A stretch of 64,000 nucleotides of DNA, taken from positions 35,543 through 99,542 of the forward strand of contig DFZN01000043.1 of the NCBI GenBank assembly GCA_002382735.1, given 5' to 3'. Of this stretch, positions 18,182 to 39,448 are shown piece by piece. Both the position numbers and the translations under genes were made by a program. Origin of the DNA: a bacterium UBP11_UBA4055 (lineage in GTDB: Bacteria > UBA4055). Numbering within the stretch: the first letter of the stretch is position 1; every line of letters begins with the position of its first letter. Below the pieces are notes generated by a model, which was not told where the DNA came from, did not search any database, and saw nothing but the letters and a program-made list of their open reading frames with translations.

Positions 18182-19441
18182 CTATAATTTATCCGAGATC
18201 GGGTACATATCGATTATCTCTTCCCGTGATTTCCCGAGTATCCCGTACTTTTTCCCGACTTTAACGAACGCTTCGAGAGCCTTTTCGAGATGATGCTTCT
18301 CATGAGCTGCGGATATCTGTGTCCTTATCCTCGCTTTGCCTTTCGGCACTACCGGATAAAAGAATCCTGTCGCATATACGCCTTCCTCATACAGTGTCCT
18401 TGAGAAATCCTGTGAAAGTTTTGCGTTGAAGAGCATGACCGGAACGATCGGGCTTTGTGTTGGGGTTAAAATAAATCCTGCTTCCTGAAGACCGCTTTTC
18501 CAGAATTCCGTATTCTTGTCCAGTTTATCCTTCCTTTCTGACGAATGCATTATCATTTCCATCACCTTAAGCACTCCTCCCACGACCACCGGAGAAATGG
18601 AATTTGAAAAGAGATACGGCCTTGATCTCTGCCTGAGGATGTCGATTATTTCCTGCCTTCCGGAAATGCAGCCTCCTGACGCCCCGCCGAGAGCCTTACC
18701 GAAAGTAGTGCTTATGAGGTCCACCTCGCCCATGACATTCATAAGCTCATGAGTACCTCTTCCGGTCTTACCCATAAAACCTGTGGCGTGAGAATCATCG
18801 ACCATGACGAGAGCTTTATACATTTTTGCCAGCTCGCAGATCTTATCAACTTTCGCCACCGTTCCGTCCATCGAGAACACGCCGTCGGTTACGATAAGTT
18901 TTACCTTATAATCCCTCTCTTCCTCAAGTTTGAGCTGAAGATCGTCCATGTCGTTATTCGCGTATCTGATCTTTTTTGCCTTACAAAGCCTTGTACCGTC
19001 AATTATTGAGGCGTGATTCAGCGCATCGGTGAAGATCGCGCAGTCCTCGTCAAGAAGAGCTTCGAAAACACCGAGATTCGCATCAAAAGCGGACGAGTAA
19101 AGTATTGTGTCGTCCATGCCCAGAAAAAGCGACACCTTGTTTTCGAGCTCGACATGAATATCCTGGGTACCGCAGATGAACCTTACCGACGACATCCCGT
19201 AGCCTCTCGTTGTCAGAATATCCCTGGCCGCGGTTATTACATCAGGATGGTTCGACATGCCGAGATAATTATTCGAGCAGATGTTTACTATACCTTCGGA
19301 TCTTACTCCATTGGGATATTCGACATCGATATCCGCATACTGCGGAGACATTATCTTTCTTTCCTGTTTGTAAAGACTGCCTTCTCTGATCTGCTCAAGC
19401 TGATCAGTGTAGAACTTCTTCATTTCCCTGTCGAATGCCAA
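18182..19441 (-). CDS. kbl: Glycine C-acetyltransferase / alpha-oxoamine synthase, copy with canonical Kbl motifs
   Basis: CSNNYLG, SSVRFICGTQ, DALNHASIIDG.RLCKA, DDSH, TFGKALGG, ARIRTQISAAH. Confidence 0.9.
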   Translation of the reverse strand: MAFDREMKKFYTDQLEQIREGSLYKQERKIMSPQYADIDVEYPNGVRSEGIVNICSNNYLGMSNHPDVITAARDILTTRGYGMSSVRFICGTQDIHVELENKVSLFLGMDDTILYSSAFDANLGVFEALLDEDCAIFTDALNHASIIDGTRLCKAKKIRYANNDMDDLQLKLEEERDYKVKLIVTDGVFSMDGTVAKVDKICELAKMYKALVMVDDSHATGFMGKTGRGTHELMNVMGEVDLISTTFGKALGGASGGCISGRQEIIDILRQRSRPYLFSNSISPVVVGGVLKVMEMIMHSSERKDKLDKNTEFWKSGLQEAGFILTPTQSPIVPVMLFNAKLSQDFSRTLYEEGVYATGFFYPVVPKGKARIRTQISAAHEKHHLEKALEAFVKVGKKYGILGKSREEIIDMYPISDKL

Positions 19442-19512
19442 CTGATACCTCTGCTGATATAACAGCTTTAAGTTTATTATTTATCCGGATCCTCTCGGAT
19501 CCAAGCCCGGCT

Positions 19513-20760
19513 TTACTGGCCGTATTTTGCGATTATTTCCTGCTTTGTCTTTCCGAGTATGTCGAACTTTTTACCGACTTTTATAAAAGCTTCAAGCGCT
19601 TTTTCCAAATGATGCATCTCATGTCCGGCCGATATCTGCGTTCTTATCCTTGCCTGTCCCTGCGGAACTACCGGGAAGAAGAAGCCGATGGCATATATAC
19701 CTTCTTCATACAGTGCTTTTGAGAAGTCCTGGGAAAGTTTTGCGTTGAAAAGCATTACCGGAACGATCGGAGTATCTCCGTCCTTAAGAACAAAACCGGC
19801 TTCAGTGAGACCTTTTCTCCAGAATTCCGTGTTCTTTTCAAGCTTGTCCCTTCTCTCGGTGCTTTTGGAAAGAATGTCGAGAACCGTGTTCACGCCTGAA
19901 ACCACCACTGGAGCTATAGTGTTGGAGAAAAGGTACGGCCTTGCTTTCTGGCGGCACATTTCGACAAGTTCTTTTCTGCCCGATACACATCCGCCCGACG
20001 CTCCGCCGAGTGCTTTTCCGAAAGTGGTGGTAATAATGTCTATCTTGCCCATCACTCCGTATTTTTCGTGAGTTCCTCTGCCTGTTTTGCCGATAAAGCC
20101 TGAAGAATGGGATTCGTCAACAAAAAGCATCGCGTCGTATTTCTCACACAGTGCTGCCATCTCGTCCAGCTTTGCCGTATCTCCGTCCATTGAGAACACT
20201 CCGTCAGTGATGACTACCTTGAGCCTCTTGTCGGCATGAAGCTGAAGTTTTTCTTCAAGATGCGCCATATCGGAATGCTTGAAAGTGTCGTGCATGGCCG
20301 GCGCAAGTCTGATCCCGTCGATTATTGATGCGTGGACCAGCCTGTCGGAGATCATAACATCATCCTTGGTCAGTATAGCCTCGAAAACACCGGCATTCGC
20401 ATCCATGCAGGAAGGGAACAGGATCGTGTCCTCCGTTCCTAAGAATTCGGTGACCTTTCTTTCAAGCTCCTTGTGGATGTCCTGCGTTCCGCAGATGAAA
20501 CGGACCGATGACATGCCGTAGCCTCTTGTGTCAAGACCTTCGTGGGCAGCTTTGATCACATCGGGGTGGCTTGAAAGACCGAGATAGTTGTTCGCGCACA
20601 TGTTGATAACTTTTTTTAGAGCGGATCCCGTGGGGAATTCAACCTCTATGTCGGCTGCCTGAGAAGAGTGAATGTACCTTTCCTGCTTGAATATTCCCTT
20701 TTCCCTGATCTCATCAAGAGAGCCGTTGTATATGTTCCTAACTTTATCACTGTAAGCCAT
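19513..20760 (-). CDS. Alpha-oxoamine synthase (Kbl-like), ACP-linked copy
   Basis: CANNYLG, SSVRFICGTQ, variant DRLVHASIIDG, DESH, TFGKALGG. Confidence 0.9.
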   Translation of the reverse strand: MAYSDKVRNIYNGSLDEIREKGIFKQERYIHSSQAADIEVEFPTGSALKKVINMCANNYLGLSSHPDVIKAAHEGLDTRGYGMSSVRFICGTQDIHKELERKVTEFLGTEDTILFPSCMDANAGVFEAILTKDDVMISDRLVHASIIDGIRLAPAMHDTFKHSDMAHLEEKLQLHADKRLKVVITDGVFSMDGDTAKLDEMAALCEKYDAMLFVDESHSSGFIGKTGRGTHEKYGVMGKIDIITTTFGKALGGASGGCVSGRKELVEMCRQKARPYLFSNTIAPVVVSGVNTVLDILSKSTERRDKLEKNTEFWRKGLTEAGFVLKDGDTPIVPVMLFNAKLSQDFSKALYEEGIYAIGFFFPVVPQGQARIRTQISAGHEMHHLEKALEAFIKVGKKFDILGKTKQEIIAKYGQ

Positions 20761-20770
20761 ATCGGGTCTC

Positions 20771-21016
20771 CTACTTCAAAAATTCATTTACGAGTTTTAC
20801 GATCTTGGTCACGCTGTCGAAAGCTTCCGGAGTAGCTTTGTCGTCAGGTATTGAGATCTTGTATTTGTTCTCGAGGAACCTTTTTAATGATACCATCGAA
20901 AAAGAGTCCACGATGCCGCCTGAAATTAAAGGGGTGTCGTAGGTCAGCACTTCATCTTCGTCTTCGAGATATTCGTTTATTACATACTTCAGAACTACAT
21001 CTTTCATTTCGTCCAT
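20771..21016 (-). CDS. Acyl/aminoacyl carrier protein
   Basis: 81 aa, acidic, GIVDSFSMV phosphopantetheine site, PEAFDSV. Confidence 0.92.
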   Translation of the reverse strand: MDEMKDVVLKYVINEYLEDEDEVLTYDTPLISGGIVDSFSMVSLKRFLENKYKISIPDDKATPEAFDSVTKIVKLVNEFLK

Positions 21017-21054
21017 TTTGCTTCTCCTCCTGTTTTTTTTATTTTTTATGTTTT

Positions 21055-22764
21055 TTATTCGTCATCGAGCGTTGAAGTATCGCCTATGTCCTGACCCCAT
21101 TCCTGAGCCCTGAGCATCCTTCTCATGATCTTGCCGCTTCTCGTTTTAGGCAGCTTTTCTAAGTATTCGATCTCCTGAGGCATGGCGAGAGGAGACAGTT
21201 TTTTCCTGATGAAGTTCATTATCTCAAGCTCAAGGTCTTCATCCGGTTCGAATCCCGGTTTTAAAGTAACGAAAGCCTTAACTACTTCCATATTGACTTC
21301 ATCAGGCTTGGAGACCACCGCTGATTCCGCTACGGCGGGATGCTCGAGAAGCGCCGATTCGACCTCAAACGGGCTGACAAGGTGGCCGGCAGTATTGATG
21401 ACATCGTCGTCCCTGCCCACGAACCAGTAGTATCCGTCCGCGTCAACAGTTGATTTGTCGCCGGGCAGGTACCAGCCGTTGGCGAATTTCTTTTTATATA
21501 TCTCCTCGTTATTCCAGTATGCCCTCATCATAGCCGGCCACCCGGGTCTAAATCCGATCAGTCCGGGCTTGTTCGGTTCGGTGATCGGCTCAAAAGTCTT
21601 CTCGTCAATGACCGCGCCCGTAACGCCGGGGAACACTTTGCCCATCGAGCCGGGTTTGACCTTCATTCCGGGATAGTTGCAGATCATCATCGATCCGGTC
21701 TCGGTCTGCCAGTATGTGTCGTAGAACGGTTTGCCGAACACTCTCTGCGACCAGATGACCGCCTCTGCATTGAGAGGCTCGCCTACGCTCGCGAGATGCC
21801 TGAGCGAGCTCAGGTCGTACTGTTTTACAAGCTCTTCGCCGGCTTTCATCAGTGACCTTATCGCCGTAGGGGCAGAGTACCACATGGTCACTTTGTTCTT
21901 CTGTATGAATTTGTACCAGCTGTCAGCAGAGAAGCCGGCATCGAGAACGCACTGCGTCACCCCGTTCGACCACGCACCGATTATTCCGTATGATGTTCCA
22001 GTGACCCAGCCCGGATCCGCGGTGCACCAGTAAATATCGTCATCCTGCAGGTCAAGGACCCATTTAGCTGTAAGATACTGTGAGATTATCGAATAATGAA
22101 CATGCTTTACGCCTTTCGGCAGCCCGGTCGTTCCTGATGTATAGTGAAGCACCGAGGGCGACTCAGCTTTAGTCGGAAAGATCTCGAATTCGTCTATCCA
22201 TTCAGCTTTTTCAAGATCAAAAGCTTTTTCTCTCTCTTTAAGGGGCTTTAAACCGTCATGGTCGATTATTATTATATGCTCTAAGAACGGTGTTCTTTCA
22301 AGAAGCTTCCTTACTTTGCCGACATGCTTTCTCTGAGTGATTATAGCTTTCGTCTGAGCGTTCTCAAGCCTTACAAAAAGGCTCTCGTCCCCGAATGCGG
22401 AAAAAAGCGGCTGAGCTATTGCGCCTATCTTTAAGACCCCGAGAAATCCGAGATACAGTTCGGGAACTTTGTCCATGAACAAACAGACCCTGTCCTCGCT
22501 CTTTATCCCGATGCTCTTCAGGTAATGCCCTATCGTGTTGGTCGCTTTTCTGATGTCGTCGAATGTGTATCTTTTTTCTTCACCGCCGTGACCCTCCCAG
22601 ATAAGGGCTGTTTTCTGCGCTTTTCCCATTTTGCAGATCCTGTCGGTGCAGTGCCATCCTATGTTGATAACTTCGCCTTCTTTGTAGCCGAGCTCTTCTT
22701 CAGCCGTTTTCCAGCTGAAATCCTTCACTCTTTCTTCGTAGGAACCGATGTTTGACATATACAT
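21055..22764 (-). CDS. AMP-forming acyl-CoA/ACP ligase (acetate-CoA ligase-like)
   Basis: YTSGTTGLPKG, ADPGWVTG, SVGEPL, YWQTETG, GRDDDVI, LPKTRSGKIMRR. Confidence 0.92.
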   Translation of the reverse strand: MYMSNIGSYEERVKDFSWKTAEEELGYKEGEVINIGWHCTDRICKMGKAQKTALIWEGHGGEEKRYTFDDIRKATNTIGHYLKSIGIKSEDRVCLFMDKVPELYLGFLGVLKIGAIAQPLFSAFGDESLFVRLENAQTKAIITQRKHVGKVRKLLERTPFLEHIIIIDHDGLKPLKEREKAFDLEKAEWIDEFEIFPTKAESPSVLHYTSGTTGLPKGVKHVHYSIISQYLTAKWVLDLQDDDIYWCTADPGWVTGTSYGIIGAWSNGVTQCVLDAGFSADSWYKFIQKNKVTMWYSAPTAIRSLMKAGEELVKQYDLSSLRHLASVGEPLNAEAVIWSQRVFGKPFYDTYWQTETGSMMICNYPGMKVKPGSMGKVFPGVTGAVIDEKTFEPITEPNKPGLIGFRPGWPAMMRAYWNNEEIYKKKFANGWYLPGDKSTVDADGYYWFVGRDDDVINTAGHLVSPFEVESALLEHPAVAESAVVSKPDEVNMEVVKAFVTLKPGFEPDEDLELEIMNFIRKKLSPLAMPQEIEYLEKLPKTRSGKIMRRMLRAQEWGQDIGDTSTLDDE

Positions 22765-22874: not shown

Positions 22875-23489
22875 TTACCTTCCCAGATAATATTTAGCCG
22901 GCTCGTTGTCTTTATCCAGAATTATGACACTGCCGAAGATGAGTAGAGCTTCGTCCTTTTCGCCGTTTAAGAATTTACTTTCGGCGAGTATGTTCAAGAA
23001 TACGACATTCGTTGGAAAAATTGACACCATTTTTTCTGCTGTTTTTATTGCGAGATCATATTTTTTCTGCTTCATAAGAGCGACTGCGTACCAGTAATTT
23101 GCGTAATAGTTGTAATGATCTATTTTAAATACCTTTACAGATTGGATTTCGACCTTCTCCCATTCCATTTTAGCTACATTTATCAGATTTATAGTGTTCA
23201 GGACTTCGACTGAGTAGGGATAAATTAACAGAGCTGTTTCAAGATGTTTTTGAGCGTTCGAATAATTTCCGGAAAGATAATATAACCATCCGAGCCTGTA
23301 ATTTACCGTATAGCCTGAGGGATAATCCTTTATAACTTTACCGAGCGCAGAGATCGCCTTATCGTATTTCTGGCCCGTTTCAAATTTTATCGAGTTGTTG
23401 TAAGCCTCTTCCAGCTCTTTCTGCGTCATTTCTGCAACTAGTGATACAGTCGCAATAAAAAGGAACAGAATTAAGGATATTTTCTTCAT
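22875..23489 (-). CDS. Exported TPR protein
   Basis: Signal peptide MKKISLILFLFIATVSLVA; TPRs (YRLGWLYYLSGNY). Confidence 0.85.
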   Translation of the reverse strand: MKKISLILFLFIATVSLVAEMTQKELEEAYNNSIKFETGQKYDKAISALGKVIKDYPSGYTVNYRLGWLYYLSGNYSNAQKHLETALLIYPYSVEVLNTINLINVAKMEWEKVEIQSVKVFKIDHYNYYANYWYAVALMKQKKYDLAIKTAEKMVSIFPTNVVFLNILAESKFLNGEKDEALLIFGSVIILDKDNEPAKYYLGR

Positions 23490-24904
23490 TTTACTCTCCA
23501 GTTGTAGTTAGCCGTTATTGAATTCGTCAGTATGGTGTAGTCCTCAAAATCCGAAAAAGAAACCGTATAGCCCAGTATCCAGTCGCCGAACAGCTTTCTG
23601 AATATTACTCCGGCGATGATGTTGGTTTTAAGCTTTGAATCGTTCGTATTGAGATATCTGCCCTCGCCTGTGTTGACAAGGAATATATCGCCCTTCGAAT
23701 AGCTTGTAAAAATATCATAGTCTTCGCTTCTGAACCCCGCCGTGGCTCCGTAAAGAAATCTCGCGCCCCCTTTGACGATATCAGGTGAGAGCTCCGTAAC
23801 AAGAGTTTCTCTGTCGGAACTAAGCATGTCGGACGCATAATCCGAATCTATATCCTCAACTATATTCACTATGCCGCCAAGGAATACATAACCCAGATTG
23901 ACAGATCCGTCAAATGTAAACTGAAGAGAAGTGAAAGAATCCGTATATGTTTCGTATTTTTCCCCTCTGGGAAGGGGATTTACGACGAATTTGTAATAAT
24001 TGTAATTTATGCCTGAATAATTCACGAATGTGTCGCCACTGAAATATCTGCCTAACCCGAATCTTGCGCCGGCTGAAACTGCGCTCATGTTCTGGATATA
24101 GTCGTTCACGAGAATACTTCCCTTCAGCCCACCGTAAACTGTCAGAGCACGGTTCAGGGTATAATTGTACTGCCCGAAGAACTCGTACTGGCCAATATCG
24201 TCATAGAACAAAAACCCCCGCTCTTTGTTCATAGCAGGATCAATGCCCGTGCCCTGCAAAACGAAATTCGTGTTGAACCTGTGACGGGCTTTTCCGAAAT
24301 TATAGTTGATGTTGAAATTATAGCCGCCCAAAAGAAGCTCGTTACTGCCGTAGTCGTAGAAGGAGAATATTACATCTAAAAACCGCCTGTCCTCATTTAG
24401 CTTTGGAAGCAGAGTGGAGTAAGCCTTTCTGAATTCGTCCGAACCGAAACCGTCGCTTATTGCCTTGCCGTACCAGTCAGCCGTCTTCTGATAATAACCG
24501 GTCTGAGACAGTCCCCATCCCGTGAGAGAGTATATCTGCTTTTTTCTAAAATAATCACTACCCGATCTGAGAAGTTTTTCCGCATACGATGTTTTTCCGA
24601 GCAGCGCGTCAGAATAAATGACTCTGTCCTGATTCAATTCCGAATTGCTGAGCTTAAGAAGTTTATTGGCATATTTATTCGCAGTTTTGATCCCGCCTGA
24701 GTTTATACTCGCGTTGTATATACCTGTCATGGCTCCCGCATTCTCAGGATCGGAATTTTCAGCTTCGTAATAATATTCGAGTGCTTTTAACATATCGCCC
24801 TTAAAATAAAATTCATCGCCTTTTACAAGCAACTGTTCTGACCCTGTTGCCGCAAAAATATTCCCCAAAGCTGATAATAGTACTACAAAGAAGAAACATT
24901 TCAT
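23486..24904 (-). CDS. Exported protein: N-terminal TPRs plus probable outer-membrane beta-barrel
   Basis: Signal peptide, TPR region, then amphipathic strands (YNFNINYNFG, YEFFGQYNYT, WILGYTVSF) and terminal YNW. Confidence 0.65.
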   Translation of the reverse strand: MKCFFFVVLLSALGNIFAATGSEQLLVKGDEFYFKGDMLKALEYYYEAENSDPENAGAMTGIYNASINSGGIKTANKYANKLLKLSNSELNQDRVIYSDALLGKTSYAEKLLRSGSDYFRKKQIYSLTGWGLSQTGYYQKTADWYGKAISDGFGSDEFRKAYSTLLPKLNEDRRFLDVIFSFYDYGSNELLLGGYNFNINYNFGKARHRFNTNFVLQGTGIDPAMNKERGFLFYDDIGQYEFFGQYNYTLNRALTVYGGLKGSILVNDYIQNMSAVSAGARFGLGRYFSGDTFVNYSGINYNYYKFVVNPLPRGEKYETYTDSFTSLQFTFDGSVNLGYVFLGGIVNIVEDIDSDYASDMLSSDRETLVTELSPDIVKGGARFLYGATAGFRSEDYDIFTSYSKGDIFLVNTGEGRYLNTNDSKLKTNIIAGVIFRKLFGDWILGYTVSFSDFEDYTILTNSITANYNWRVK

Positions 24905-26979
24905 ATCTTTGTTATCCTTATCTCTTTCCCGCCGGACATTATACCCACTTCTCTTATGCCTTTTCGCTGACAGAGCTCAGCTTCCGTCCGGGCTGACACC
25001 TTACCGTTCTTCACGATCCTTCCCGTTACCTTTTTGCCGTCATGTTTTGCGTAGAATCCCTTCTGGCTGCTTAGACCGGTTCCGAAAGATTTTATTAAGA
25101 GAGGAATTCTTGAACTTCTAAGCACATTTTCAGGAATATATTCGTTCCATTCTATATCGTCGTCGTCGGAAAACGGGACAGAGGGAAGCGCGAGGAAAAA
25201 ATATCGTAAGGCTGAAGTATAATTCCCGTCGTATTTGAAGAAAACGAACCTGCCTTTATCGGTACCGAAGTACAATCTGCTTCCTTTGCCGTCGGAAAAA
25301 TAATATGTGCCTTCTACTTCCATCCCGACCTTTAATGTCAGATCGGATATTACCCTGCCGTTTTCTGTCACTTTATAGCTGAACTGCTCATCGAGAACGA
25401 ACTGAAGTTTTCTCGAAAGCGTTTTCGAAGTGACGAGCGGAATGACCGTGTCGTTCTTTGAAAGATATTTTGCATCTGTATCCTTTCCGTTGACCTTGAG
25501 AGAGTTGAAGGCGAATTCTATGCCGGGCGTTCCTATCAGATGATTAAGTTGTACCTGAACATGAAGGTGAGGCTCGGGCGAATAACCTGAATTCCCGCAT
25601 TCGGCTATGAGCCGGCCTTTTGTAATCTGGTCGTTCTTTTTGACTCTGACCGAACCCTGTTTCAAATGCGACAGTTCGACATAATATCCCGGATAAACAT
25701 AAATTATGATATAATTCCCCCAGTTGCTGGATTTATCGACCTCGCCTATCTCATTGTCGTCAAGGTCGTCGAACACTTCGACTACCGTACCGTCGGCCGG
25801 AGAGAGTACGGGTTTTCCGAAGCAGAAATAATCCTCTCTTTTTGACCCGTCGCCGGAAAATGTTTTACCGTTCTCCGAAATAACGAAGTCGTACGCATAT
25901 TTCCAGAACCCTTTGTGCGTCCACTCGCCGTCAAATCCCTGATAAACAGTCCATTTACCGGAGAACGGCAGCCTGATCGAAGGCGTGACCCAGTCGAACC
26001 TGTTCGAATAGTTGAGGTGGTCAACGAGCGCCATCTCAGGCTGTTCGAGGCCGGTTGAGTTCATCATCACATATTTCACGCTTCCGAGAACATAGATGTA
26101 TAAGAGCACAGTAAGGTTGAACGGAAGGGTGAATACCGGTATGCCGAAGGAGATCCAGAACACAGATGCGGCGTCAATGATGAAGACCGAGCCGAGTACT
26201 GCCGTCAGGGTCAAGAGGTATGTCCTCTTGGACGGTATCAGGAACATTCCGCCGAGAGCAGCGCCGACGAGTATGAAGTTGAATGAGGATATTTCGGCGA
26301 AAGCGAGCGGGATGCTTCCCTTTAACAGAGACAGGAAAAATATTCCTGCGTAATACGAAGCGACGGCGGAAAAGAATGTAATTCTGGAGTACAGAAGTAT
26401 CGCGAGCAGAAGTATCAGTCCCACGATGTCGTAAGGCATGAATATCAGTATGCCGGCGGCGCGTAGGAGACCCTGTACATATCCGGGCAGAAAGTCGAGG
26501 TTAAAATATTCCTGCTTATAGAATGAGTCGACGATAAGGCTGCTGTATTTACCTGAAGCAAGATATATTATCGTAGCCGAGATCGTGAAAGGGATGTTGA
26601 GCACCGGCAGTTTGAAGTACAGATACAGCGCAGAACTTATGGTATATGTGAGAAGGACGGTAAATATGCTCATTCCGACTGCCAGCAGCATCGAAAGGTA
26701 AGTTACCTTGAATATGAACCCGACAGCGAACCCGGTCAGAAGCGCGTTGTAGGTGAGAAGCTTGTTGACAGGATCATCCTTTTTTATTCCGATGAATCTG
26801 GAGAATAATAGAGCGGTGATCAGCCCGATAATTCCCGTAAGAGCTATATTTCTGTTGAACAGTGTCGCAAAGAAAAGAATGAGGCCGAGCGCCTGATTTC
26901 TTATGAAGAACAGGTTGGAGTAGGCGTGGAGCAGTTCTCGAATGAACTCAGCGGCCTTCGAAGCTCTTTTTTCTTCCAT
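24901..26979 (-). CDS. Urea-transporter-like membrane domain fused to an M23 peptidase domain
   Basis: ~300-aa polytopic N-terminus (YNALLTG, LPVLNIPF, IPVFTLPFN); M23 motifs H..YAYD, SHLKQGS, GNSGYSPEPHLH. Confidence 0.85.
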   Translation of the reverse strand: MEEKRASKAAEFIRELLHAYSNLFFIRNQALGLILFFATLFNRNIALTGIIGLITALLFSRFIGIKKDDPVNKLLTYNALLTGFAVGFIFKVTYLSMLLAVGMSIFTVLLTYTISSALYLYFKLPVLNIPFTISATIIYLASGKYSSLIVDSFYKQEYFNLDFLPGYVQGLLRAAGILIFMPYDIVGLILLLAILLYSRITFFSAVASYYAGIFFLSLLKGSIPLAFAEISSFNFILVGAALGGMFLIPSKRTYLLTLTAVLGSVFIIDAASVFWISFGIPVFTLPFNLTVLLYIYVLGSVKYVMMNSTGLEQPEMALVDHLNYSNRFDWVTPSIRLPFSGKWTVYQGFDGEWTHKGFWKYAYDFVISENGKTFSGDGSKREDYFCFGKPVLSPADGTVVEVFDDLDDNEIGEVDKSSNWGNYIIIYVYPGYYVELSHLKQGSVRVKKNDQITKGRLIAECGNSGYSPEPHLHVQVQLNHLIGTPGIEFAFNSLKVNGKDTDAKYLSKNDTVIPLVTSKTLSRKLQFVLDEQFSYKVTENGRVISDLTLKVGMEVEGTYYFSDGKGSRLYFGTDKGRFVFFKYDGNYTSALRYFFLALPSVPFSDDDDIEWNEYIPENVLRSSRIPLLIKSFGTGLSSQKGFYAKHDGKKVTGRIVKNGKVSARTEAELCQRKGIREVGIMSGGKEIRITKI

Positions 26980-26991
26980 GCTCTCCCGCTG

Positions 26992-28344
26992 TTACAAATT
27001 AAATTTTCTTAGTTTGTCAGGCACGAACTCCGGTCCTGTAATGTCCTCGAGCTTTTCTGCCCGCCTGATCTGCTCAAGCTTTCCGTCCTCCATTATCATC
27101 GCTACTGCCGGACGGTAGCGGATGAACTGCATCCACTGCGTCACATTATATGCGCCCATGGGCGACAGGATTATCCTTGTCCCTTTGGGCAGAGGAGGAA
27201 GAAACGCGCTTTCTGCGACGACATCGATATTCATGCAGAGCGGACCGTACAGTATGCTGTTCTCGTACGCGCCGTGAAGCTCGCGGTCTATCTCGACCTT
27301 GTAGTTGTACCAGGCTGAAGTGTAGAGCAGATTCACGCCGGCGTCGATGATGTAGGACTTCGTCCCGTCGGGCAGGCGCTTGACCGCATCGACGGTTGAG
27401 ATAAGCCAGCCGGCCTCGTCCACTATAGCGCGCCCGGTCTCGAGATACACATCCGGATACTCGTCCGGCGCGAGCTCGTCAAGAAGCGTGTCCGCCACGG
27501 CGTCGATGAAATTCTCGACGGGCTGGACGGCGACTTCGGGCGGAAGATAGGTCCCTTTAAGTTTGTTGTTCGAAGGAAAACCGCCCCCGAAATCGAGGTA
27601 CGATATTGTTATTTCAAATTCATGCTCTATCTTCCGCATCAGCTGCACAACTTTTTTCACTGCCTCTTTGTACGCGTTTGGATCCATCATGAATGTACCT
27701 ATGTGGCAGTGTATCCCCTCGAGGTGCAGATGTTCGCTGTGAGAGATCCTCTTCACAGCGTTGAAGGCGCCGTTGTTCTCGATCGGGAAGCCGAAGCGCG
27801 ACCACTGCGGATAAACTCCCGTGTCCATGTTGACCCTTATGCCGACGGAAACTTTTTTCCCGACTTTTTTTGCGGCTTCCTCCGCCTTGATGATCTCGTC
27901 AAAATTGTCGAGGTTCACCATCGCGCCGTCGGTAAAAGCGGTCACGAGAGAATCCAGCGGCTTATACGGTCCGTTGTAGATTATCCTGTTACCCGGCACG
28001 CCGAGGCTCCTCGCCTTTTCGTACTCGAAGTCGGACACGACCTCGGCAGTCTCACCCTCTTGGTGCAGGATCGAGCATACCGCGCCGAGATAGTTCGTCT
28101 TGTAGGACCAGCTCATCTTCGCTTTCGGGTACTTGCTGGAGAAATATGAATAAATTTTCCTGTACCTTTCCCTTATCACCTTCTCGCTCAGGACGAAAAC
28201 GGGGGATCCGAACTCATCGGTGAACCTGCCTATGGGAATTCCTTCGATGTCCTCCCTGTGGCCTTTGTTGTATGTCACACCGAACTTGTTCATCACTCCG
28301 GCCGACTGTCTTTTTATGTATGGTTTGATGTATTCTTTTTTCAT
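26992..28344 (-). CDS. Fold-type III PLP enzyme (DAP/Orn/Arg decarboxylase family)
   Basis: SYKTN (PLP Lys), HCHIGT, DFGGGF, ETGR, GPLCMNID, GAY. Confidence 0.9.
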   Translation of the reverse strand: MKKEYIKPYIKRQSAGVMNKFGVTYNKGHREDIEGIPIGRFTDEFGSPVFVLSEKVIRERYRKIYSYFSSKYPKAKMSWSYKTNYLGAVCSILHQEGETAEVVSDFEYEKARSLGVPGNRIIYNGPYKPLDSLVTAFTDGAMVNLDNFDEIIKAEEAAKKVGKKVSVGIRVNMDTGVYPQWSRFGFPIENNGAFNAVKRISHSEHLHLEGIHCHIGTFMMDPNAYKEAVKKVVQLMRKIEHEFEITISYLDFGGGFPSNNKLKGTYLPPEVAVQPVENFIDAVADTLLDELAPDEYPDVYLETGRAIVDEAGWLISTVDAVKRLPDGTKSYIIDAGVNLLYTSAWYNYKVEIDRELHGAYENSILYGPLCMNIDVVAESAFLPPLPKGTRIILSPMGAYNVTQWMQFIRYRPAVAMIMEDGKLEQIRRAEKLEDITGPEFVPDKLRKFNL

Positions 28345-29393
28345 TTTTTCACCTCTCCTGATTCGCCGTAAGTGCTTATCTGTTCAAAATCGGATATGTC
28401 TTTTACAAGTTCGTTGGTGTATCTGATCATCAGTTTGCCGCTTTTGTAGTCAGAATGAGTTTCAAACTCCTGACCCGTTAAAAGTTTTACCATTCTCGCA
28501 GGCAGATTTATCCCGCATCCGGCCGGAAAATACACCCATGCAGGGAATCTCGGGTTTATCTCGAGCACATAAATGTCCTGAGTTTTGTTCTCCATGAGCA
28601 CTTCGAACTCGAACCCGCCGCGCCATTTCAGGCCGCTCACGACCTTTTTTGTAGCCTCGATCAGCCGCTCGTTCCTTATGCTGACGGCGTTCCATACCTT
28701 ACCGAGCTTGGTTATTGTCATCTTGCGGATAGCGAAAACGCCCATGTCGTTGCCTTTGCCGTCCCCGCAGCCTATCACATCGTATTCGTCGCCCTGAATG
28801 AACTTCTGGGCTATGATCGGGTAGCCCCATGCGGCCGCGATCTTGATAAAATAACCTTCAGCCTCGCCGGGTGAAGTCGCCTTGAACGCTTCATAGAACG
28901 GGCCTTTGACCATGCAGGGAAAACCGAGCTTCTCTGTGGCCTTGTGCAGGTCGGAAAGTGATGTGCAGCTTATGTATTCCGGTGCTTTCACGCCTATTTT
29001 TTCCGAAAGTTCTTTCAGTTTGAGTTTGTCCCTTAGTCTGAACATCTCCTTTGTGGGTATCAGCATCTTTATGCCCATTTCCACCAGCACCGGCTCGATA
29101 TCCATATAGATCGGAAGTTCGGCGTCTAAAGCTGAGATTATCACATCAAGGTTTTCTTTTTCGTGGATATCCCTGATACGCTCGATAAATGCTTCTTTAC
29201 TGCCTGACGGATATGGCATTATGTAACTTTTGTCTATTATGTGATCAAGATATATTCCAGGTTCAAGAGCGTCGTAGGCAAGACCGATCGCCCTGATCTC
29301 CATCCCGCTTTCCTTAAGCGCACGGCATATTCCGGCACCCGGCCCCGGATTGTCTATCGTATTAATTCCGCTCACCGCGACTGTTATTTTCAT
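28341..29393 (-). CDS. ATP-grasp ligase
   Basis: DKL, PCMVKG, QKFIQGDE, FEFE, LEINPRF. Confidence 0.9.
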   Translation of the reverse strand: MKITVAVSGINTIDNPGPGAGICRALKESGMEIRAIGLAYDALEPGIYLDHIIDKSYIMPYPSGSKEAFIERIRDIHEKENLDVIISALDAELPIYMDIEPVLVEMGIKMLIPTKEMFRLRDKLKLKELSEKIGVKAPEYISCTSLSDLHKATEKLGFPCMVKGPFYEAFKATSPGEAEGYFIKIAAAWGYPIIAQKFIQGDEYDVIGCGDGKGNDMGVFAIRKMTITKLGKVWNAVSIRNERLIEATKKVVSGLKWRGGFEFEVLMENKTQDIYVLEINPRFPAWVYFPAGCGINLPARMVKLLTGQEFETHSDYKSGKLMIRYTNELVKDISDFEQISTYGESGEVKK

Positions 29394-29402
29394 ATTAGCC
29401 GC

Positions 29403-29648
29403 CTAAACAAGAAAATATTTTTTGAGATTTTCGACAAAATCCTGAATATCGACAGTTACTTCATCGTCGGAAGCCTCGAATTCATCCATGATCGCCGACT
29501 TTATCTCATCCTCTTCCTTACCCGCCTTCAGAAGCTCAAGGATCTTAAGCCCGGTCGCGTTAGCTGTGTACGAATGACCCGTCACAGGATCGAAAATGAA
29601 GCCGCTGTCGCTTATTGCAAGTACCGATAATTTGTCTCTGTCCATCAT
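29403..29648 (-). CDS. Stand-alone PqqD/RRE-family protein
   Basis: 81 aa; beta-strands FIFDPVTGHSYTANATGLKILELL then helices EIKSAIMDEFE..EVTVDIQDFVENL, the PqqD wHTH pattern. Confidence 0.85.
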   Translation of the reverse strand: MMDRDKLSVLAISDSGFIFDPVTGHSYTANATGLKILELLKAGKEEDEIKSAIMDEFEASDDEVTVDIQDFVENLKKYFLV

Positions 29649-29827: not shown

Positions 29828-30250
29828 TTATTCTTTTATCAGATTCACTGTAAAAATATAATCAGTTTTAATTTCGCACTTTTTATTTTCGGTGTTAGTT
29901 ACGACTAACTTAAAAGCGATGTTTGTAGTCTTCTTTATCTTTATCAGTTCTTTTATCATCGAGATATTGAAGTGCCTAGTCGGTTCTTTGTTAGGATCGA
30001 TAAAAACGGTTCGCTTTAGAATTTCTTTACCATCATCCAAAAGGCAAACATCGATAGTTTTGAGCTTTAAATCCTTTTTATAATTTGTAGTTCTGAATAA
30101 AAAACTCAAAGGGAAAATCGCTTCACCTGTGAAATTTTTGCTGACTTTTGCATTTAACTCATTTACCAAACCAACAATTGTATGTTTGCCACCGATTTCA
30201 CTTCTTATATCGTCACAAACTATCACATCATTTAATTTAATATTTTCCAT
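29828..30250 (-). CDS. Beta-rich hypothetical protein (DUF6941-like), third gene of the TA operon
   Basis: VIVCDDIRSEIGGKHTIVG. The start at 30250 (SD GGAGA) overlaps the antitoxin 3' end by 14 nt. Confidence 0.7.
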   Translation of the reverse strand: MENIKLNDVIVCDDIRSEIGGKHTIVGLVNELNAKVSKNFTGEAIFPLSFLFRTTNYKKDLKLKTIDVCLLDDGKEILKRTVFIDPNKEPTRHFNISMIKELIKIKKTTNIAFKLVVTNTENKKCEIKTDYIFTVNLIKE

Positions 30251-30866
30251 TTTGATCTCCTGCGTTATAATCATTACTGCTTTCTTTTACCATCTTATAT
30301 TTCTGTTCCGTAACTATGTAACCATTTTCGCTAACAGCGATCAATGAAACAGCGGAAGCATTTGAAATCTCCGGACTTGCATATTTATTTCTTTCAACAA
30401 GATCGAACTTCTTCATCGCTGCCTCTTTGAATACAGCATCAGTATATTTTTTATCGAACTTACGGGCGGCTACATAAATGATCCATGGATAACTTCTTAT
30501 AACCCTTAACAGAGTTAATCCAATAGCTGAATAATTCAATCTGCTTTTCCACCTTGAGAGTGTGCGGACAGGCAATCCCAATGAATCTTCAATATCCTTA
30601 AGTTTTATATTCTTCTTATTAAAGAATTCAAGAATATTCTTTATTGAGCTTTGCTCAGATATTTTCTGAGCTTTTTCATATTCATCTGTGTAATTCAGCG
30701 TGAAGTTTATTTCATCACCGCATTTCTTGCATCTCAATATTTTTTCTTCAAACTCAACTATTTCACCGAAAGGCACATACTCTGTCTGCTTTTCAATTAC
30801 AGAAGTAAAACTTTCGTTTCCGCAGTAATTGCATTTGATATTTTTCCCATTCAGCTTCATAATCAT
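30237..30866 (-). CDS. MqsA-like antitoxin: Zn ribbon + XRE HTH + ~70-aa C-terminal extension
   Basis: CNYC...CKKC, LKDIEDSLGLPVRTLSRWKS, LLRVIRSYPW. Confidence 0.8.
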   Translation of the reverse strand: MIMKLNGKNIKCNYCGNESFTSVIEKQTEYVPFGEIVEFEEKILRCKKCGDEINFTLNYTDEYEKAQKISEQSSIKNILEFFNKKNIKLKDIEDSLGLPVRTLSRWKSRLNYSAIGLTLLRVIRSYPWIIYVAARKFDKKYTDAVFKEAAMKKFDLVERNKYASPEISNASAVSLIAVSENGYIVTEQKYKMVKESSNDYNAGDQNGKY

Positions 30867-30874
30867 TCCTTTCT

Positions 30875-31282
30875 TTAGATCAATCCCAGTTCGCGCAACT
30901 GCCTTCCCAGATCTGTTTCTTTTTTTCCGTAACCTTCATCATACTTCTTAAACGATTTTATAACCCATATTCCGGTATATTCTGAAAGATAAAACGCAAG
31001 ATAACCGTCAATAAACTTGTAAACGAACATATAAGAATCTACTTTCGGTGGCGGAGTTTCTGATGTCTTTTCCAAATCCCGGGTTTTGAGGTATTTCAAC
31101 TCTTTTATATTTAAATTTATGACCGCAGAGAATAATTCATTCTTATTATCGATACCGAAAACAGACTTTGCATCCTCAATAACCTTTGTCTTGATCTCTA
31201 CGGTATTTTTGCCATTCATTGCAAACTTACACGCTGTCTTCAATTTGCCGAATTCATAATATGGTCCCGATTTTGCCAACAT
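30875..31282 (-). CDS. MqsR/RelE-like toxin (putative)
   Basis: GPYY N-terminus, DSY, YLAF, VIKSFK; lies directly upstream of the Zn-HTH gene. Start is likely 31282. Confidence 0.65.
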   Translation of the reverse strand: MLAKSGPYYEFGKLKTACKFAMNGKNTVEIKTKVIEDAKSVFGIDNKNELFSAVINLNIKELKYLKTRDLEKTSETPPPKVDSYMFVYKFIDGYLAFYLSEYTGIWVIKSFKKYDEGYGKKETDLGRQLRELGLI

Positions 31283-31294
31283 TTCTTCCCGTTT

Positions 31295-31336
31295 ATACAC
31301 GGAATGTATTATAATGATACACAACACGAAATGCAA
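31295..31336 (-). promoter_or_regulatory. Consensus promoter of the TA operon with overlapping palindrome
   Basis: TTGCAT-17 nt-TATAAT (31336-31308); palindrome ATACA-cggaa-TGTAT at 31295-31309. Confidence 0.75.
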
Positions 31337-31514
31337 GAAGATTTATTAATTTCTTTTTGGCGGCGGGAAACAAATTGTGGCGACAGTGTATCTACAATCG
31401 TATATTACTTGAAATATTTATTACTTATATAAAGTCTAACTTACTAAGAACAACCTACCCCAACACATAACCCGCAAGGATCTTCTGCACTTCATAAATA
31501 TGATACTTTTCCCT

Positions 31515-31557
31515 TTGACTTTACAGAGGATTTACTTTAAATTGATACTGTAAAAGT
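31515..31557 (+). promoter_or_regulatory. Promoter of the DUF4365-like cassette, framed by an inverted repeat
   Basis: TTGACT-17 nt-TAAATT; TTTACAG (31520-31526) / CTGTAAA (31548-31554). Confidence 0.55.
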
Positions 31558-31579
31558 GAAAAAGAGAATAAAATAAACC

Positions 31580-32095
31580 ATGATGACTGAACAACATATA
31601 AAAGAAGCAATCTCTAAGAAATTTATAGGCTTAATTGCTTCAAAGTGCGGATATTCTACCTCTGAACCTTCTCAAGATTACGGTAGAGATTTATCAATTG
31701 TTGAAGTTGGTATCAGGAACGAAAATAATAAATCCAGATATTCTGAAACCGGTAGAGAACTTAAATTTCAACTTAAGGCTACAACTGAAAATTCTGTAAT
31801 TGTATCAGACGATAATCTTAAATATGATCTGGAAGCAAAAAATTACAACGATCTAATTATGAGACGCAATACGAAAAGTCCGCTTATTCTTGTGCTTTTT
31901 ATACTCCCGACAAATCAGACTGAGTGGCTGATTGTGTCAGAAAACGAACTAATTTCAAAAAAATGTGCTTATTGGTATATTCCTCAACAAAACGAAGCAA
32001 CAACAGAAAACACCGATACTAAACGAATCGTAATTAATAAAAACAATCTTGTAAATCCTGAGTCATTAAATCAACTGTTTGAAGAGTACGCATGA
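31580..32095 (+). CDS. DUF4365-like PD-(D/E)xK nuclease-fold protein
   Basis: DYGRD, FQLKAT, YDLEAKNYNDL, PLILVLFILP, CAYW. Confidence 0.85.
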   Translation: MMTEQHIKEAISKKFIGLIASKCGYSTSEPSQDYGRDLSIVEVGIRNENNKSRYSETGRELKFQLKATTENSVIVSDDNLKYDLEAKNYNDLIMRRNTKSPLILVLFILPTNQTEWLIVSENELISKKCAYWYIPQQNEATTENTDTKRIVINKNNLVNPESLNQLFEEYA

Positions 32096-33189: not shown

Positions 33190-33216
33190 ATCGGTAAAAT
33201 AAAACCCAAGAGACGC

Positions 33217-34449: not shown

Positions 34450-35018
34450 TGGCACAAATCCTCGTCATGGACACATCAAGCATAATTCACTATCTCCACT
34501 ATTACAGATTCGACAAGTTCCATTCAAAAGAAATCTATAACAAACTCAACAGCTTTATCTATCGAAAAATCACCGAAGGCAAAATCCATATAATAGATAA
34601 AGTATATGACGAACTACAAGACAGACTAGAAACAGCCGAAATTAAAAGAATTATACATCCTCATAAGAAATCCACACTTGATTTACTCCCCGAAGTTCAA
34701 GAACTCATTGAAAAATATAAAATACTCGGAATAGTAAGAACTCTCGCATCAGAAGAATTAGAGCTTGAGTTAACAAAATATGAAAACACAATAGCTGATC
34801 TCTTCCTCGTAGCTTACTGCAAAAAACTGCGAAGCCAAGGACACCAACCCATACTCATCAACGACGAAACAAGAAAAAGCGATAGAAAATTCATAGCTAA
34901 AATCCCCACAATCTGCATAGCAGAAGAAATCCGGTTTGAAAAAATCCCGGATGTACTCTTTGAAATATACAAAGACGAGCTTGAATTTAGTCTAGACAAA
35001 AACTTATTATTGAGGTAA
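34449..35018 (+). CDS. DUF4411-like PIN-domain protein
   Basis: MDTSSII, IIDKVYDEL, ADLFLVAY, INDE, KIPTIC; TAATG coupling to the peptidase. Confidence 0.85.
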   Translation: MAQILVMDTSSIIHYLHYYRFDKFHSKEIYNKLNSFIYRKITEGKIHIIDKVYDELQDRLETAEIKRIIHPHKKSTLDLLPEVQELIEKYKILGIVRTLASEELELELTKYENTIADLFLVAYCKKLRSQGHQPILINDETRKSDRKFIAKIPTICIAEEIRFEKIPDVLFEIYKDELEFSLDKNLLLR

Positions 35019-35021
35019 CTA

Positions 35022-35588: not shown

Positions 35589-35591
35589 AAA

Positions 35592-36666: not shown

Positions 36667-36673
36667 AAATGAA

Positions 36674-39293: not shown

Positions 39294-39448
39294 TGAATCA
39301 TTCCTGTTTTCAGTATTGAAGTAAGATTATCCGCAATCTGTTTGCGGTTAAGCTTATCATATTTTGCATTAAATGGATCTTTTTTATCGAAATCTAGTTT
39401 TTCTGAATTTGACATAATTCTGCCTTATGTAATTATTTATAACCATTC

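Follow-up and report, generated by a model that had tools for sequence, protein, structure and literature searches.

A urea-transporter-fold protein fused to an M23 peptidase domain with a predicted cytoplasmic location, encoded in a widespread six-gene cassette

A UT-M23 fusion gene in a six-gene cassette

The window analyzed here is a 64,000-nucleotide stretch from a bacterium UBP11_UBA4055 (GenBank assembly GCA_002382735.1, contig DFZN01000043.1, positions 35,543 to 99,542 of the forward strand). It carries a minus-strand gene, with an ATG start, for a 692-aa protein made of three parts: a urea-transporter (UT) fold membrane channel, an M23 zinc metallopeptidase domain, and a C-terminal beta domain. 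The gene lies within a run of six genes, all on the minus strand (Table 1).

Table 1. Positions, within the window, of the genes and predicted features of the cassette
Positions	Strand	Feature	Residues
29741..29769	-	Sigma-70-like promoter candidate upstream of the PqqD-like gene	
29403..29648	-	PqqD-like (RRE) protein, first gene of the cassette	
28341..29393	-	ATP-grasp ligase, CPS-like/PRK12767 type	
26992..28344	-	Fold-III PLP decarboxylase, closest to FslC (N-citrylornithine decarboxylase)	
24901..26979	-	UT-M23 fusion, complete ORF	1-692
26020..26964	-	UT-fold channel domain: Pa, T1a-T5a, periplasmic loop (145-165), Pb, T1b-T5b, short conserved PE..L helix	6-320
25495..25977	-	M23 zinc metallopeptidase domain, predicted cytoplasmic	335-495
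24904..25494	-	Family-specific C-terminal beta domain, predicted cytoplasmic	496-692
23486..24904	-	Signal-peptide protein, TPR-like N-terminal part and outer-membrane beta-barrel-like C-terminal domain; start overlaps the fusion's stop	
22875..23489	-	Periplasmic TPR protein with signal peptide, last gene of the cassette	

An earlier note, made from the sequence alone, had described this ORF as a UT-fold membrane domain joined to an M23 domain with intact PHLH and H-x7-D motifs and an unassigned C-terminal domain of about 190 aa, and this observation is confirmed, with one correction to the first motif. Pfam UT (PF03253) matches residues 14-297 (E 4.5e-49, 167.6 bits against a cut-off of 25, profile positions 2-290 of 292) and Peptidase_M23 (PF01551) matches residues 388-479 (E 1.9e-13, 50.9 bits against 28.7). 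PHLH is at residues 470-473, but the first ligand motif is H355-x8-D364 (HKGFWKYAYD) rather than H-x7-D. The AF2 model of the protein is confident (pLDDT 89.7, pTM 0.82), and Foldseek confirms both folds, with TM-scores of 0.79-0.84 to the Desulfovibrio vulgaris channel dvUT (PDB 3k3f and 3me1) and matches of the M23 domain to EnpA (TM 0.78), LytM, lysostaphin, and LasA.

The C-terminal ~198 aa have no Pfam match in any of 70 orthologs, so the description of this part as unassigned was right. The domain is modeled with high confidence (pLDDT 92.9) as an open curved beta-sheet or half-barrel, with only weak fold matches: Z 9.8 to 4fvs, Z 6-7 to LolA, and Foldseek TM of about 0.3. An exhaustive HMM search returned 549 hits; among the 150 best listed, the domain sits at about residues 490-690 of UT-M23 proteins, in UT-M23-TPR fusions, or in shorter pieces, and the eight atypical proteins checked with Pfam all carried M23.

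Pore, active site, and predicted topology

The UT domain retains the inverted-repeat fold of SLC14/UT urea channels (dvUT; mammalian UT-B and UT-A) but not their polar filter. The family profile aligns end to end with dvUT residues 16-333, including both LPxxTxPF motifs (residues 124-131 and 279-287) and the PE..L helix that follows the membrane domain. The hydrophobic slot is kept: dvUT F80, F190, L84, L129, L247, and T294 correspond to Y77, F180, L81, L127, L237, and T284, of which Y77 and F180 are invariant and the others conserved. In contrast, the polar ladder and Sm residues differ: the column of dvUT Q24 is E/Y/T/N/M, the column of E187 is I/V/T/A, T130 becomes N (67 sequences) or S (19), and L293 becomes F. 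The protein scores 87.2 bits against a cut-off of 274.6 for the NCBIfam urea transporter equivalog (TIGR03441), and no urease was found in this 97.9%-complete genome. These observations, together with the invariance of the peptidase residues described below and of many other residues of the soluble part, and with the co-inheritance of the gene with a ligase and decarboxylase pair, make it very unlikely that the protein is a simple urea channel with a vestigial or purely structural peptidase-like appendage, although the complete UT fold and signature motifs and the database name "urea transporter" would fit that view. No characterized UT is known to be fused to an enzyme, and a literature search found no paper describing such a protein.

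In the M23 domain, H355, D364, H438, H471, and H473, the five predicted metal-ligand and catalytic residues, are invariant in 86 of 86 homologs. H438 (in SHL) and H471 and H473 (in the GNSG.S..PHLH.Q block) align with lysostaphin and Csd, and sequence matches in the PDB to Csd, lysostaphin, and ShyA cover the SH..CGNSGYSPEPHLH half of the domain. The first motif differs from the HxxxD of other M23 (LytM/lysostaphin-type) enzymes in its unusual x8 spacing, with about 22 residues between the Asp and the G.PV strand; no sequence alignment to a solved M23 structure covers it, and the geometry of the metal site is therefore assumed from invariance alone. The domain belongs to a subfamily shared with secreted DUF3887-M23 proteins and with a haloarchaeal membrane protein.

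Four lines of evidence predict that the M23 and C-terminal domains are cytoplasmic. First, the UT topology is canonical: the profile aligns with the whole of dvUT, whose inter-repeat loop is periplasmic, and no hydrophobic segment lies between residues 300 and 335. Second, K+R counts are 8.44 on the inside and 3.03 on the outside, with inside greater than outside in 85 of 86 sequences. Third, in proteins of 1073-1085 aa and in three shorter pieces where a TPR region follows the C-domain, a 19-residue hydrophobic anchor (KD at least 2.0) preceded by Arg-rich sequence separates the C-domain from the TPR, whose standalone counterparts carry signal peptides. Fourth, standalone proteins with only the M23 and C-domains (Lebetimonas P0130, and P0126, as numbered in our set) have no signal peptide. 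Peptidoglycan remodeling around a trans-envelope conduit, which the earlier note had offered as one option, is therefore not supported and appears very unlikely, although all characterized M23 enzymes act outside the cytoplasm (PMC9662197), the closest M23 relatives outside the family carry signal peptides, the weak fold matches of the C-domain are to periplasmic LolA-like proteins, and NCBI names some members "peptidoglycan DD-metalloendopeptidase family protein". If the predicted location is correct, the substrate cannot be the murein sacculus.

Partner genes and their co-inheritance

Among 80 loci from more than 15 phyla (as judged from record titles), the same gene order recurs in 58-68, and no other flanking gene is conserved; the PqqD-like gene is adjacent in 58 loci, the TPR gene is found in 64, and a gene occupies the position of the barrel-like protein in most. 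The cassette is found in about 400 species-level genomes across many diderm phyla, including cultured thermophiles and Fibrobacter, and we found no paper describing it. In 81 Aquificota genomes, the same 23 carry both the fusion and the ATP-grasp ligase, even where the genes are unlinked. In 3 of 5 apparent exceptions the ligase is elsewhere in the genome.

The PqqD-like protein matches Pfam PqqD (2.2e-11), and its best NCBIfam match is the lasso-type PqqD chaperone, below its cut-off. The ligase matches Pfam ATP-grasp_3, NCBIfam PRK12767 (6e-24, below cut-off), and, with the family profile, PDB 2pn1 (2.5e-20). The decarboxylase matches Pfam Orn_Arg_deC_N and is closest among solved structures to FslC (7KH2, E 5.6e-55, against 1e-41 for the best DAP decarboxylase and 1e-19 for BtrK), but scores 214.2 bits against the 500-bit cut-off of NF041039 for N-citrylornithine decarboxylase. 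In the rhizoferrin route of Francisella (FslA/FslC, also FigA/FigC) a ligase is likewise paired with a fold-III decarboxylase acting on an amide-conjugated amino acid; there, however, the ligase is an NIS synthetase rather than an ATP-grasp enzyme, and there is no PqqD, M23, or UT channel. The cassette decarboxylase also carries an N-terminal Y5xxPx[ILVM] tail (residues 5-10) in 63 of 64 orthologs. This resembles the YxxPxL motif documented for lasso leaders (PMC10368454), which the PqqD-type B1 protein recognizes, but here the motif is part of a full-size enzyme rather than a precursor peptide, the cassette has no B2 protease or C cyclase, and recognition of the tail by the PqqD-like protein is inferred by analogy.

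The last two genes are the barrel-like and TPR proteins. The barrel-like protein has no Pfam match, and its family no PDB sequence match; profile-profile comparison relates its 290-aa and 470-aa forms (probability 99.9%, E 3e-35), and among 26 short forms a signal peptide is present in 25 and a terminal aromatic residue in 22. The TPR protein matches TPR families, and in some species it is fused to the C-terminus of the UT-M23 protein through the anchor described above. A periplasmic TPR protein and an outer-membrane barrel form the exit routes of synthase-dependent exopolymer systems (PgaA, BcsC, AlgK/AlgE), and here a signal-peptide TPR protein and a barrel-like protein are encoded right after the inner-membrane component; in this window the barrel-like protein itself has a TPR-like N-terminal part. 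The cassette has no glycosyltransferase or other known polymer synthase, and the barrel is predicted from sequence features alone. Upstream of the PqqD-like gene, the promoter candidate (TTGATA-17-TATATT, 10 of 12 matches) is a consensus match only; the region holds no more sites than shuffled sequence does.

A model of amine or amide export, and alternatives

We propose, with moderate confidence, that the fusion is the inner-membrane component of a self-contained, envelope-spanning cassette that probably makes a small amine or amide compound and passes it out through both membranes. What the analysis shows is the architecture (a complete UT-fold channel followed, with no further TM helix, by an M23 domain with its catalytic residues intact and a family-specific beta domain), the placement of both soluble domains on the cytoplasmic face, as a prediction rather than an experiment, and the strict co-inheritance of the fusion with a compact PqqD-like, ATP-grasp, and FslC-like decarboxylase triad next to the barrel-like and TPR genes. 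The mechanism, including catalysis, substrates, product, what the pore conducts, and the direction of transport, is inferred. In this view, the ATP-grasp ligase would make an amide bond to an amino acid; the decarboxylase, tethered by the PqqD-like protein through its leader-like tail, would remove the alpha-carboxylate of the conjugated amino acid, as FslC does with N-citrylornithine; and the M23 domain, possibly helped by the beta domain as a substrate holder, would hydrolyze an amide bond of the intermediate at the inner mouth of the channel. The released small, unbranched amine or amide would leave passively through a UT pore that keeps its hydrophobic slot but has lost the urea-type polar ladder, and would then cross the periplasm and outer membrane through the TPR and barrel pair. 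The protein would be neither a cell-wall hydrolase nor a urea supply channel. However, UT channels are passive and bidirectional, and canonical UT pores pass only urea-sized planar molecules, so that even a diamine conjugate may be too large unless the altered filter is wider. A dedicated outer-membrane barrel is also unusual for a small molecule that general porins could pass, and PqqD-type proteins normally serve ribosomal peptides.

The interpretation offered in the earlier note is partly supported. It had suggested that translocation could be coupled to proteolytic release of a product, with a logic analogous to that of peptidase-containing exporters, and neither of the outcomes it had named as refuting this applies, since the UT fold is complete and the M23 ligands are intact and invariant. 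A coupled proteolytic or amidolytic release step fits the evidence and gains from it: the peptidase is predicted on the cytoplasmic side of the channel, as the C39 domain is in peptidase-containing ABC transporters (PCATs), and the gene is co-inherited with the ligase and decarboxylase pair. This is an analogy of logic and not membership, since only UT and M23 domains were found in the protein and the cassette has no ABC transporter, ATPase, C39 cysteine peptidase, or double-glycine precursor, and its conduit is a passive, narrow channel. Nothing supports a peptide as the product of the cluster; no precursor gene was found, and the UT pore is narrow.

A closer parallel to PCATs or lasso systems would be RiPP-type export, in which PqqD presents a ribosomal precursor encoded elsewhere, the ATP-grasp and decarboxylase modify it, and the M23 domain removes the leader before export. 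The PqqD-like protein is a canonical RRE, the peptidase lies on the predicted cytoplasmic side of a membrane conduit, and a dedicated barrel would suit a larger cargo. We consider this unlikely, however: no small ORF is conserved upstream of PqqD in 57 loci, the flanking gaps in unlinked triads are about 20 nt or overlaps, leaving no room for a precursor, the leader-like motif sits on the decarboxylase itself, and the UT pore keeps its narrow slot and has no energy source for peptide translocation. Alternatively, the cassette could serve import and salvage, with a small amide or short unbranched peptide entering through the barrel and the UT channel, being cleaved by the M23 domain, and the released amino acid, for example, a diamino acid from cell-wall peptides, being converted by the decarboxylase and ligase. 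The bidirectionality of UT channels, the predicted position of the M23 domain on the cytoplasmic exit side, the cleavage of Gly-Gly or D-Ala-mDAP bonds by characterized M23 enzymes, and the relationship of the decarboxylase to DAP decarboxylases are compatible with this. It also appears unlikely, because an ATP-consuming ligase and a PqqD-type adaptor point to synthesis rather than breakdown, TPR and barrel pairs occur in export routes and are not known in uptake, the decarboxylase is closer to FslC, a biosynthetic enzyme acting on a conjugate, than to LysA, and no catabolic or regulatory genes are conserved nearby.

A more speculative possibility, improbable but not excluded, is that the cassette makes and extrudes a side-chain-free linear oligo- or polyamide. 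The ATP-grasp would add an amino acid to the amino end of a growing chain and the decarboxylase would strip the alpha-carboxylate of each new terminal residue, an iterated form of the BtrJ/BtrK logic; the chain of planar amide groups would thread in single file through the UT slot, which evolved to bind planar amides; the M23 domain, a fold specialized for unbranched Gly-type peptides, would set the chain length or release the chain; and the TPR and barrel pair would serve as a polymer exit route, as in PgaA or BcsC. This would be a new class of secreted biopolymer and a new use of the UT fold.

UT channels are known only as passive urea pores and M23 peptidases only as enzymes that act on cell walls from outside the cytoplasm, whereas here both folds are reused together, with the peptidase predicted at the inner mouth of the channel. 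The identity of the product would reveal a new small-molecule or polymer export route, show what a non-urea UT pore conducts, and give the first substrate for a cytoplasmic M23 enzyme. For annotation, "urea transporter" and "peptidoglycan DD-metalloendopeptidase" are both probably misleading names for this family.

Architecture, family and predicted pore of the UT-M23 protein

The ORF at the centre of this analysis starts with ATG and encodes 692 amino acids. Pfam places UT (PF03253) at residues 14-297 (E 4.5e-49) and Peptidase_M23 (PF01551) at residues 388-479 (E 1.9e-13), both well above their gathering scores, whereas the last ~198 residues match no Pfam family in any of 70 orthologs. The observation in the earlier note, of a urea-transporter-type membrane domain joined to an M23 domain with an intact HxH motif and an unassigned C-terminal part, is borne out, with one correction: PHLH lies at residues 470-473, but the upstream His and Asp are H355 and D364, which makes the first motif H-x8-D rather than the H-x7-D that had been proposed. 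An AlphaFold2 model built on 86 homologs is confident (pLDDT 89.7, pTM 0.82), and Foldseek matches its N-terminal half to the Desulfovibrio urea channel dvUT (TM 0.79-0.84 on the target) and its middle part to the M23 enzymes EnpA (0.78), LytM, lysostaphin, LasA and ShyA.

The three-part architecture is common. A word-indexed search returned over 1000 hits, of which the 120 best were almost all proteins of 670-750 aa carrying both Pfam domains, and a search limited to one genome per species gave 402 species with a relative. By record titles these span Delongbacteria (92% identity), Cloacimonadota, Desulfobacterota, Thermodesulfobacteria, Aquificota, Campylobacterota, Fibrobacterota, Calditrichota, Ignavibacteria and other Bacteroidota, Verrucomicrobiota, Planctomycetota, Gemmatimonadota, Armatimonadota, and others, and no record title among the 80 loci fetched names a classical Gram-positive (Bacillota or Actinomycetota) lineage. 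Cultured carriers of the cassette include Thermodesulfatator indicus DSM 15286, Thermosulfuriphilus ammonigenes, and Melioribacter roseus. NCBI labels the closest homologs (P0002 and P0007, 92% and 70% identity) 'Clostridiales bacterium', while the matching genome record is titled Candidatus Delongbacteria; the Clostridiales label is probably a taxonomic mis-assignment of a MAG. The databases variously name the protein 'urea transporter', 'peptidase M23', or 'peptidoglycan DD-metalloendopeptidase family protein'. An exhaustive profile search with the C-terminal domain found 549 proteins; among the 150 best listed, the domain sits at about residues 490-690 of UT-M23 proteins, in UT-M23-TPR fusions, or in shorter pieces, and the eight atypical ones checked with Pfam all carried M23, so that this domain serves as a marker of the family. 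One long member (P0299, 1029 aa) shows two UT-profile stretches and a UT-like sequence (..GLFGVNGVLFG..) after its M23 region and ahead of the TPR repeats, which may represent a duplicated or rearranged channel module.

The family profile aligns with dvUT from residue 16 to residue 333, covering both LPxxTxPF motifs (residues 124-131 and 279-287 here) and even the PE..L helix after the last TM. We mapped the published filter residues of dvUT (PMC4357013) onto the 86-sequence alignment and found that the hydrophobic slot is strongly conserved, while the polar side chains that make up the urea 'ladders' are not. Judged from these residues, the pore is under selection, but it is not the urea filter. 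Two further results agree with this: the protein scores 87 bits against the 274.6-bit cut-off of the NCBIfam urea-transporter equivalog, and the genome, which is 97.9% complete, has no urease alpha subunit and only this one UT gene. We therefore consider it very unlikely that the protein is a plain urea channel.

Filter residues of dvUT and their equivalents in the UT-M23 protein, with conservation across 86 sequences
dvUT residue	Equivalent	Conservation in the family
F80	Y77	86/86
F190	F180	86/86
L129	L127	83/86
L84	L81	L or I in 85/86
L247	L237	80/86
T294	T284	79/86
Q24	N22	variable (E/Y/T/N/M)
E187	I177	I/V/T/A
T130	N128	N (67) or S (19)
L293	F283	F (81)

In the peptidase, the C-terminal half of the M23 domain aligns by sequence with Csd, lysostaphin, and ShyA (SHL, then CGNSGYSPEPHLHVQ). 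H355, D364, H438, H471, and H473 are invariant in all 86 sequences, as are C461, N422, and Q475, and the domain is therefore not a degenerate LytM-type regulator like EnvC, although no alignment to a solved structure covers the first motif and the metal-site geometry is assumed from invariance alone. The nearest relatives of this M23 domain outside the family are 40-45% identical over about 145 residues: secreted proteins of Proteobacteria, Acidobacteriota, and Bacteroidota with a signal peptide and a DUF3887 domain, plus a multi-TM protein of the haloarchaeon Haloarchaeobius amylolyticus, an organism without murein (the proteins in question are P0236, P0174, P0237, and P0175). They share a long first motif (H-x8/9-D, QRFAYDF-type), so this is a distinct M23 subfamily.

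Folded alone, the C-terminal domain is predicted with confidence (pLDDT 92.9) and is mostly antiparallel beta. A full-library structural comparison gave Z 9.8 to 4fvs, a Parabacteroides lipoprotein, 9.7-9.6 to vitellogenin and ApoB beta-sheets, and 6-7 to LolA proteins, values that are only just above what unrelated models reach, and Foldseek lists LolA and LolB with TM about 0.3. On these middling matches we do not assign the domain to the LolA superfamily or to any other, and describe it as a predicted open, curved beta-sheet or half-barrel of a kind that often holds a ligand.

Predicted orientation of the peptidase in the membrane

The side of the membrane on which the M23 domain lies decides between the two roles suggested in the earlier note, proteolytic release coupled to translocation and local peptidoglycan remodelling. 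Four lines of evidence agree. First, in known UTs the loop between the two repeats is periplasmic or extracellular (PMC4357013), so the two inverted halves put both termini in the cytoplasm; here the UT alignment is complete, and no hydrophobic segment lies between the last UT helix (residues 285-300) and the M23 domain. Second, with segments assigned by that topology, the cytoplasmic-side segments hold 8.44 K+R on average and the periplasmic-side segments 3.03, with inside exceeding outside in 85 of 86 sequences. Third, some species encode a single protein of 1073-1085 aa in which the cassette's TPR module follows the C-terminal domain, and in all six junctions examined (including three shorter pieces) a 19-residue hydrophobic segment (Kyte-Doolittle mean at least 2.0), preceded by an Arg-rich stretch, separates the two. 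Since the standalone TPR proteins carry signal peptides, the C-terminal domain and the TPR are placed on opposite sides of the membrane, with the C-terminal domain inside, and the fusion also shows that the two proteins work together. Fourth, standalone M23 plus C-domain proteins (P0130 from Lebetimonas, and P0126) start directly at the M23 domain with no signal peptide.

We conclude with fairly high confidence, though from prediction, that the M23 and C-terminal domains are cytoplasmic, a placement that would exclude action on the murein sacculus and makes periplasmic wall remodelling very unlikely. No cytoplasmic M23 enzyme is known to have been characterised, and a 2022 review of the family lists only cell-wall-related roles and does not mention 'urea' or UT fusions.

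A co-inherited six-gene cassette

The fusion is the fourth of six tightly packed, co-directional genes. Across the 80 fetched loci, the decarboxylase is adjacent in 68, the ligase in 64, the TPR protein in 64, and the PqqD-like protein in 58, and many of the misses are contig ends. A gene of 280-550 aa nearly always lies between the fusion and the TPR gene. The short and long forms of this gene are homologous (hhalign probability 99.9%, E 3e-35), the form in the window carrying an extra N-terminal TPR-like part. The short forms have a signal peptide in 25 of 26, a terminal aromatic residue in 22 of 26 (20 of them Phe), and almost no cysteine, which is the signature of an outer-membrane beta-barrel; the barrel is thus inferred from sequence features alone, as the protein has no Pfam or PDB sequence match and a search of the Atlas returned only unnamed TPR proteins. 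All-against-all clustering of flanking ORFs found no other conserved gene, and an Rfam search for a riboswitch or other RNA found nothing in the window's cassette region or in 8 loci.

Genes and regions of the window discussed in the text
Feature	Coordinates	Strand	Remarks
Ser/Thr kinase-domain protein	14408-18172	-	1254 aa
Acyl-CoA ligase, ACP, and two Kbl-like genes	18182-22764	-	downstream of the cassette
TPR protein with signal peptide	22875-23489	-	204 aa; last gene of the cassette
Signal-peptide protein, putative barrel	23486-24904	-	472 aa; start overlaps the stop of the fusion
UT-M23 fusion	24901-26979	-	692 aa
Fold-III PLP decarboxylase	26992-28344	-	conserved tail in the first ~25 codons
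ATP-grasp ligase	28341-29393	-
PqqD-like protein	29403-29648	-	first gene of the cassette
Three small genes	29828-31336	-	153 aa, 209 aa, and a DUF6941 protein; immediately upstream of the cassette
Low-GC stretch	~30000-42000		GC 0.30-0.36, against 0.40-0.51 elsewhere

The fusion and the ligase also occur together when they are not neighbours. Where the enzymes are not adjacent, the ligase ortholog is elsewhere in the same genome in 3 of 5 cases (E below 1e-160). In a sample of 81 Aquificota genomes, exactly the same 23 carry the C-domain marker and the ligase ortholog and 58 have neither, and the 23 include genomes where the two genes are 195 kb apart or on different contigs; in such genomes the triad of PqqD, ligase, and decarboxylase stays compact among housekeeping genes, and the fusion stays with the putative barrel gene. 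In the window's own phylum (16 genomes), 9 have both and 2 have neither, and the 5 discordant genomes either have a contig-end truncation of the ligase match or are 73-88% complete. These genomes are related to one another, so the counts are not independent events, but even so the co-occurrence of unlinked genes argues for one pathway, while the patchy distribution argues for an accessory function.

The closest solved relative of the decarboxylase is FslC, the N-citrylornithine decarboxylase of rhizoferrin synthesis (7KH2, E 5.6e-55), ahead of the DAP decarboxylases (1e-41) and BtrK (1e-19), although it scores below the FslC family cut-off. FslC acts on an amino acid that is already amide-linked through its side chain. 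The ligase belongs to the uncharacterised CPS-like/PRK12767 group. The PqqD-like protein is a canonical RRE closest to lasso-type chaperones; we considered whether it might be a LysW-type carrier, but it has no conserved C-terminal acidic residue and its conserved residues are those of an RRE. Such a protein could point to export of a ribosomal peptide encoded elsewhere, a reading that we regard as unlikely: there is no conserved small ORF within 450 nt upstream of PqqD in 57 loci, the clustering of flanking ORFs yielded no candidate, and the unlinked triads leave no intergenic room for a precursor. Instead, the decarboxylase has a conserved ~25-residue extension ahead of its catalytic core, with Y..P.[ILVM] at residues 5-10 in 63 of 64 orthologs from many phyla, against 1.3 expected from shuffles. 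The motif does not occur elsewhere in the first 70 residues, nor in the ligase N-termini, and it resembles YxxPxL, the documented lasso leader motif (PMC10368454). The RRE may therefore dock on the decarboxylase itself, the extension acting as a built-in docking tail, although this is suggested by the motif alone.

Inferred mechanism and surroundings of the cassette

The analysis establishes the architecture, the predicted topology, the intact catalytic residues, the conserved but altered pore, the cassette, and the co-inheritance, whereas the chemistry, including catalysis, binding, and the passage of any compound through the pore, is inferred from these. In the mechanism that we favour, the ligase would form an amide to an amino acid and the decarboxylase would remove the alpha-carboxylate of that conjugate. 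The M23 domain, at the inner mouth of the channel and perhaps with the beta domain holding the substrate, would then hydrolyse an amide bond, either to remove a protecting group or to release the product, and a small, unbranched amine or amide would leave down its gradient through the UT pore, to be carried across the periplasm and the outer membrane by the TPR protein and the putative barrel. We consider this mechanism as a whole about as likely as not. The interpretation in the earlier note is thus partly supported: the logic of a peptidase-containing exporter is retained, with the peptidase on the same side as the C39 domain of PCATs, but without an ABC transporter and probably acting on a small molecule rather than a peptide. 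The reverse process, import and salvage, appears unlikely. The data also allow a more unusual but improbable possibility, that a side-chain-free polyamide is threaded through the amide-binding slot. Both domains belong to known families, and the databases already hold and name these proteins, but full-text literature searches found no paper on the fusion or the cassette; the combination that appears in none of the papers found is that of a predicted inward-facing M23 domain with a UT pore that lacks the urea filter, inside a co-inherited six-gene cassette that, in this view, spans the envelope, which should be of clear interest to specialists in transporters, peptidases, and natural products.

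The genes on either side do not appear to belong to this system. Downstream of the cassette and co-directional with it lie an acetate/acyl-CoA ligase (NCBIfam PRK04319, above its cut-off), an 81-aa ACP closest to the ornithine-lipid OlsHI-type ACP, and two paralogous glycine C-acetyltransferase (Kbl)-type enzymes. We considered a link to these genes, including a butirosin-like ACP route, but they accompany the fusion in only 3-5 of 80 loci, all of them close relatives (69-92% identity), so they are not part of the core and look like a separate or lineage-specific add-on module. Beyond them, a protein with an N-terminal Hanks-type Ser/Thr kinase domain and about 1000 residues with no Pfam match in our scan is conserved next to the Kbl genes in the closest relatives (loci L001 and L020). 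On the upstream side, the three small genes adjoining the cassette are unrelated to it, since they are not conserved next to it in other loci, and the low-GC stretch carries DUF4365 and IrrE/M78-peptidase-like genes and has the look of a mobile or defence island abutting the cassette.
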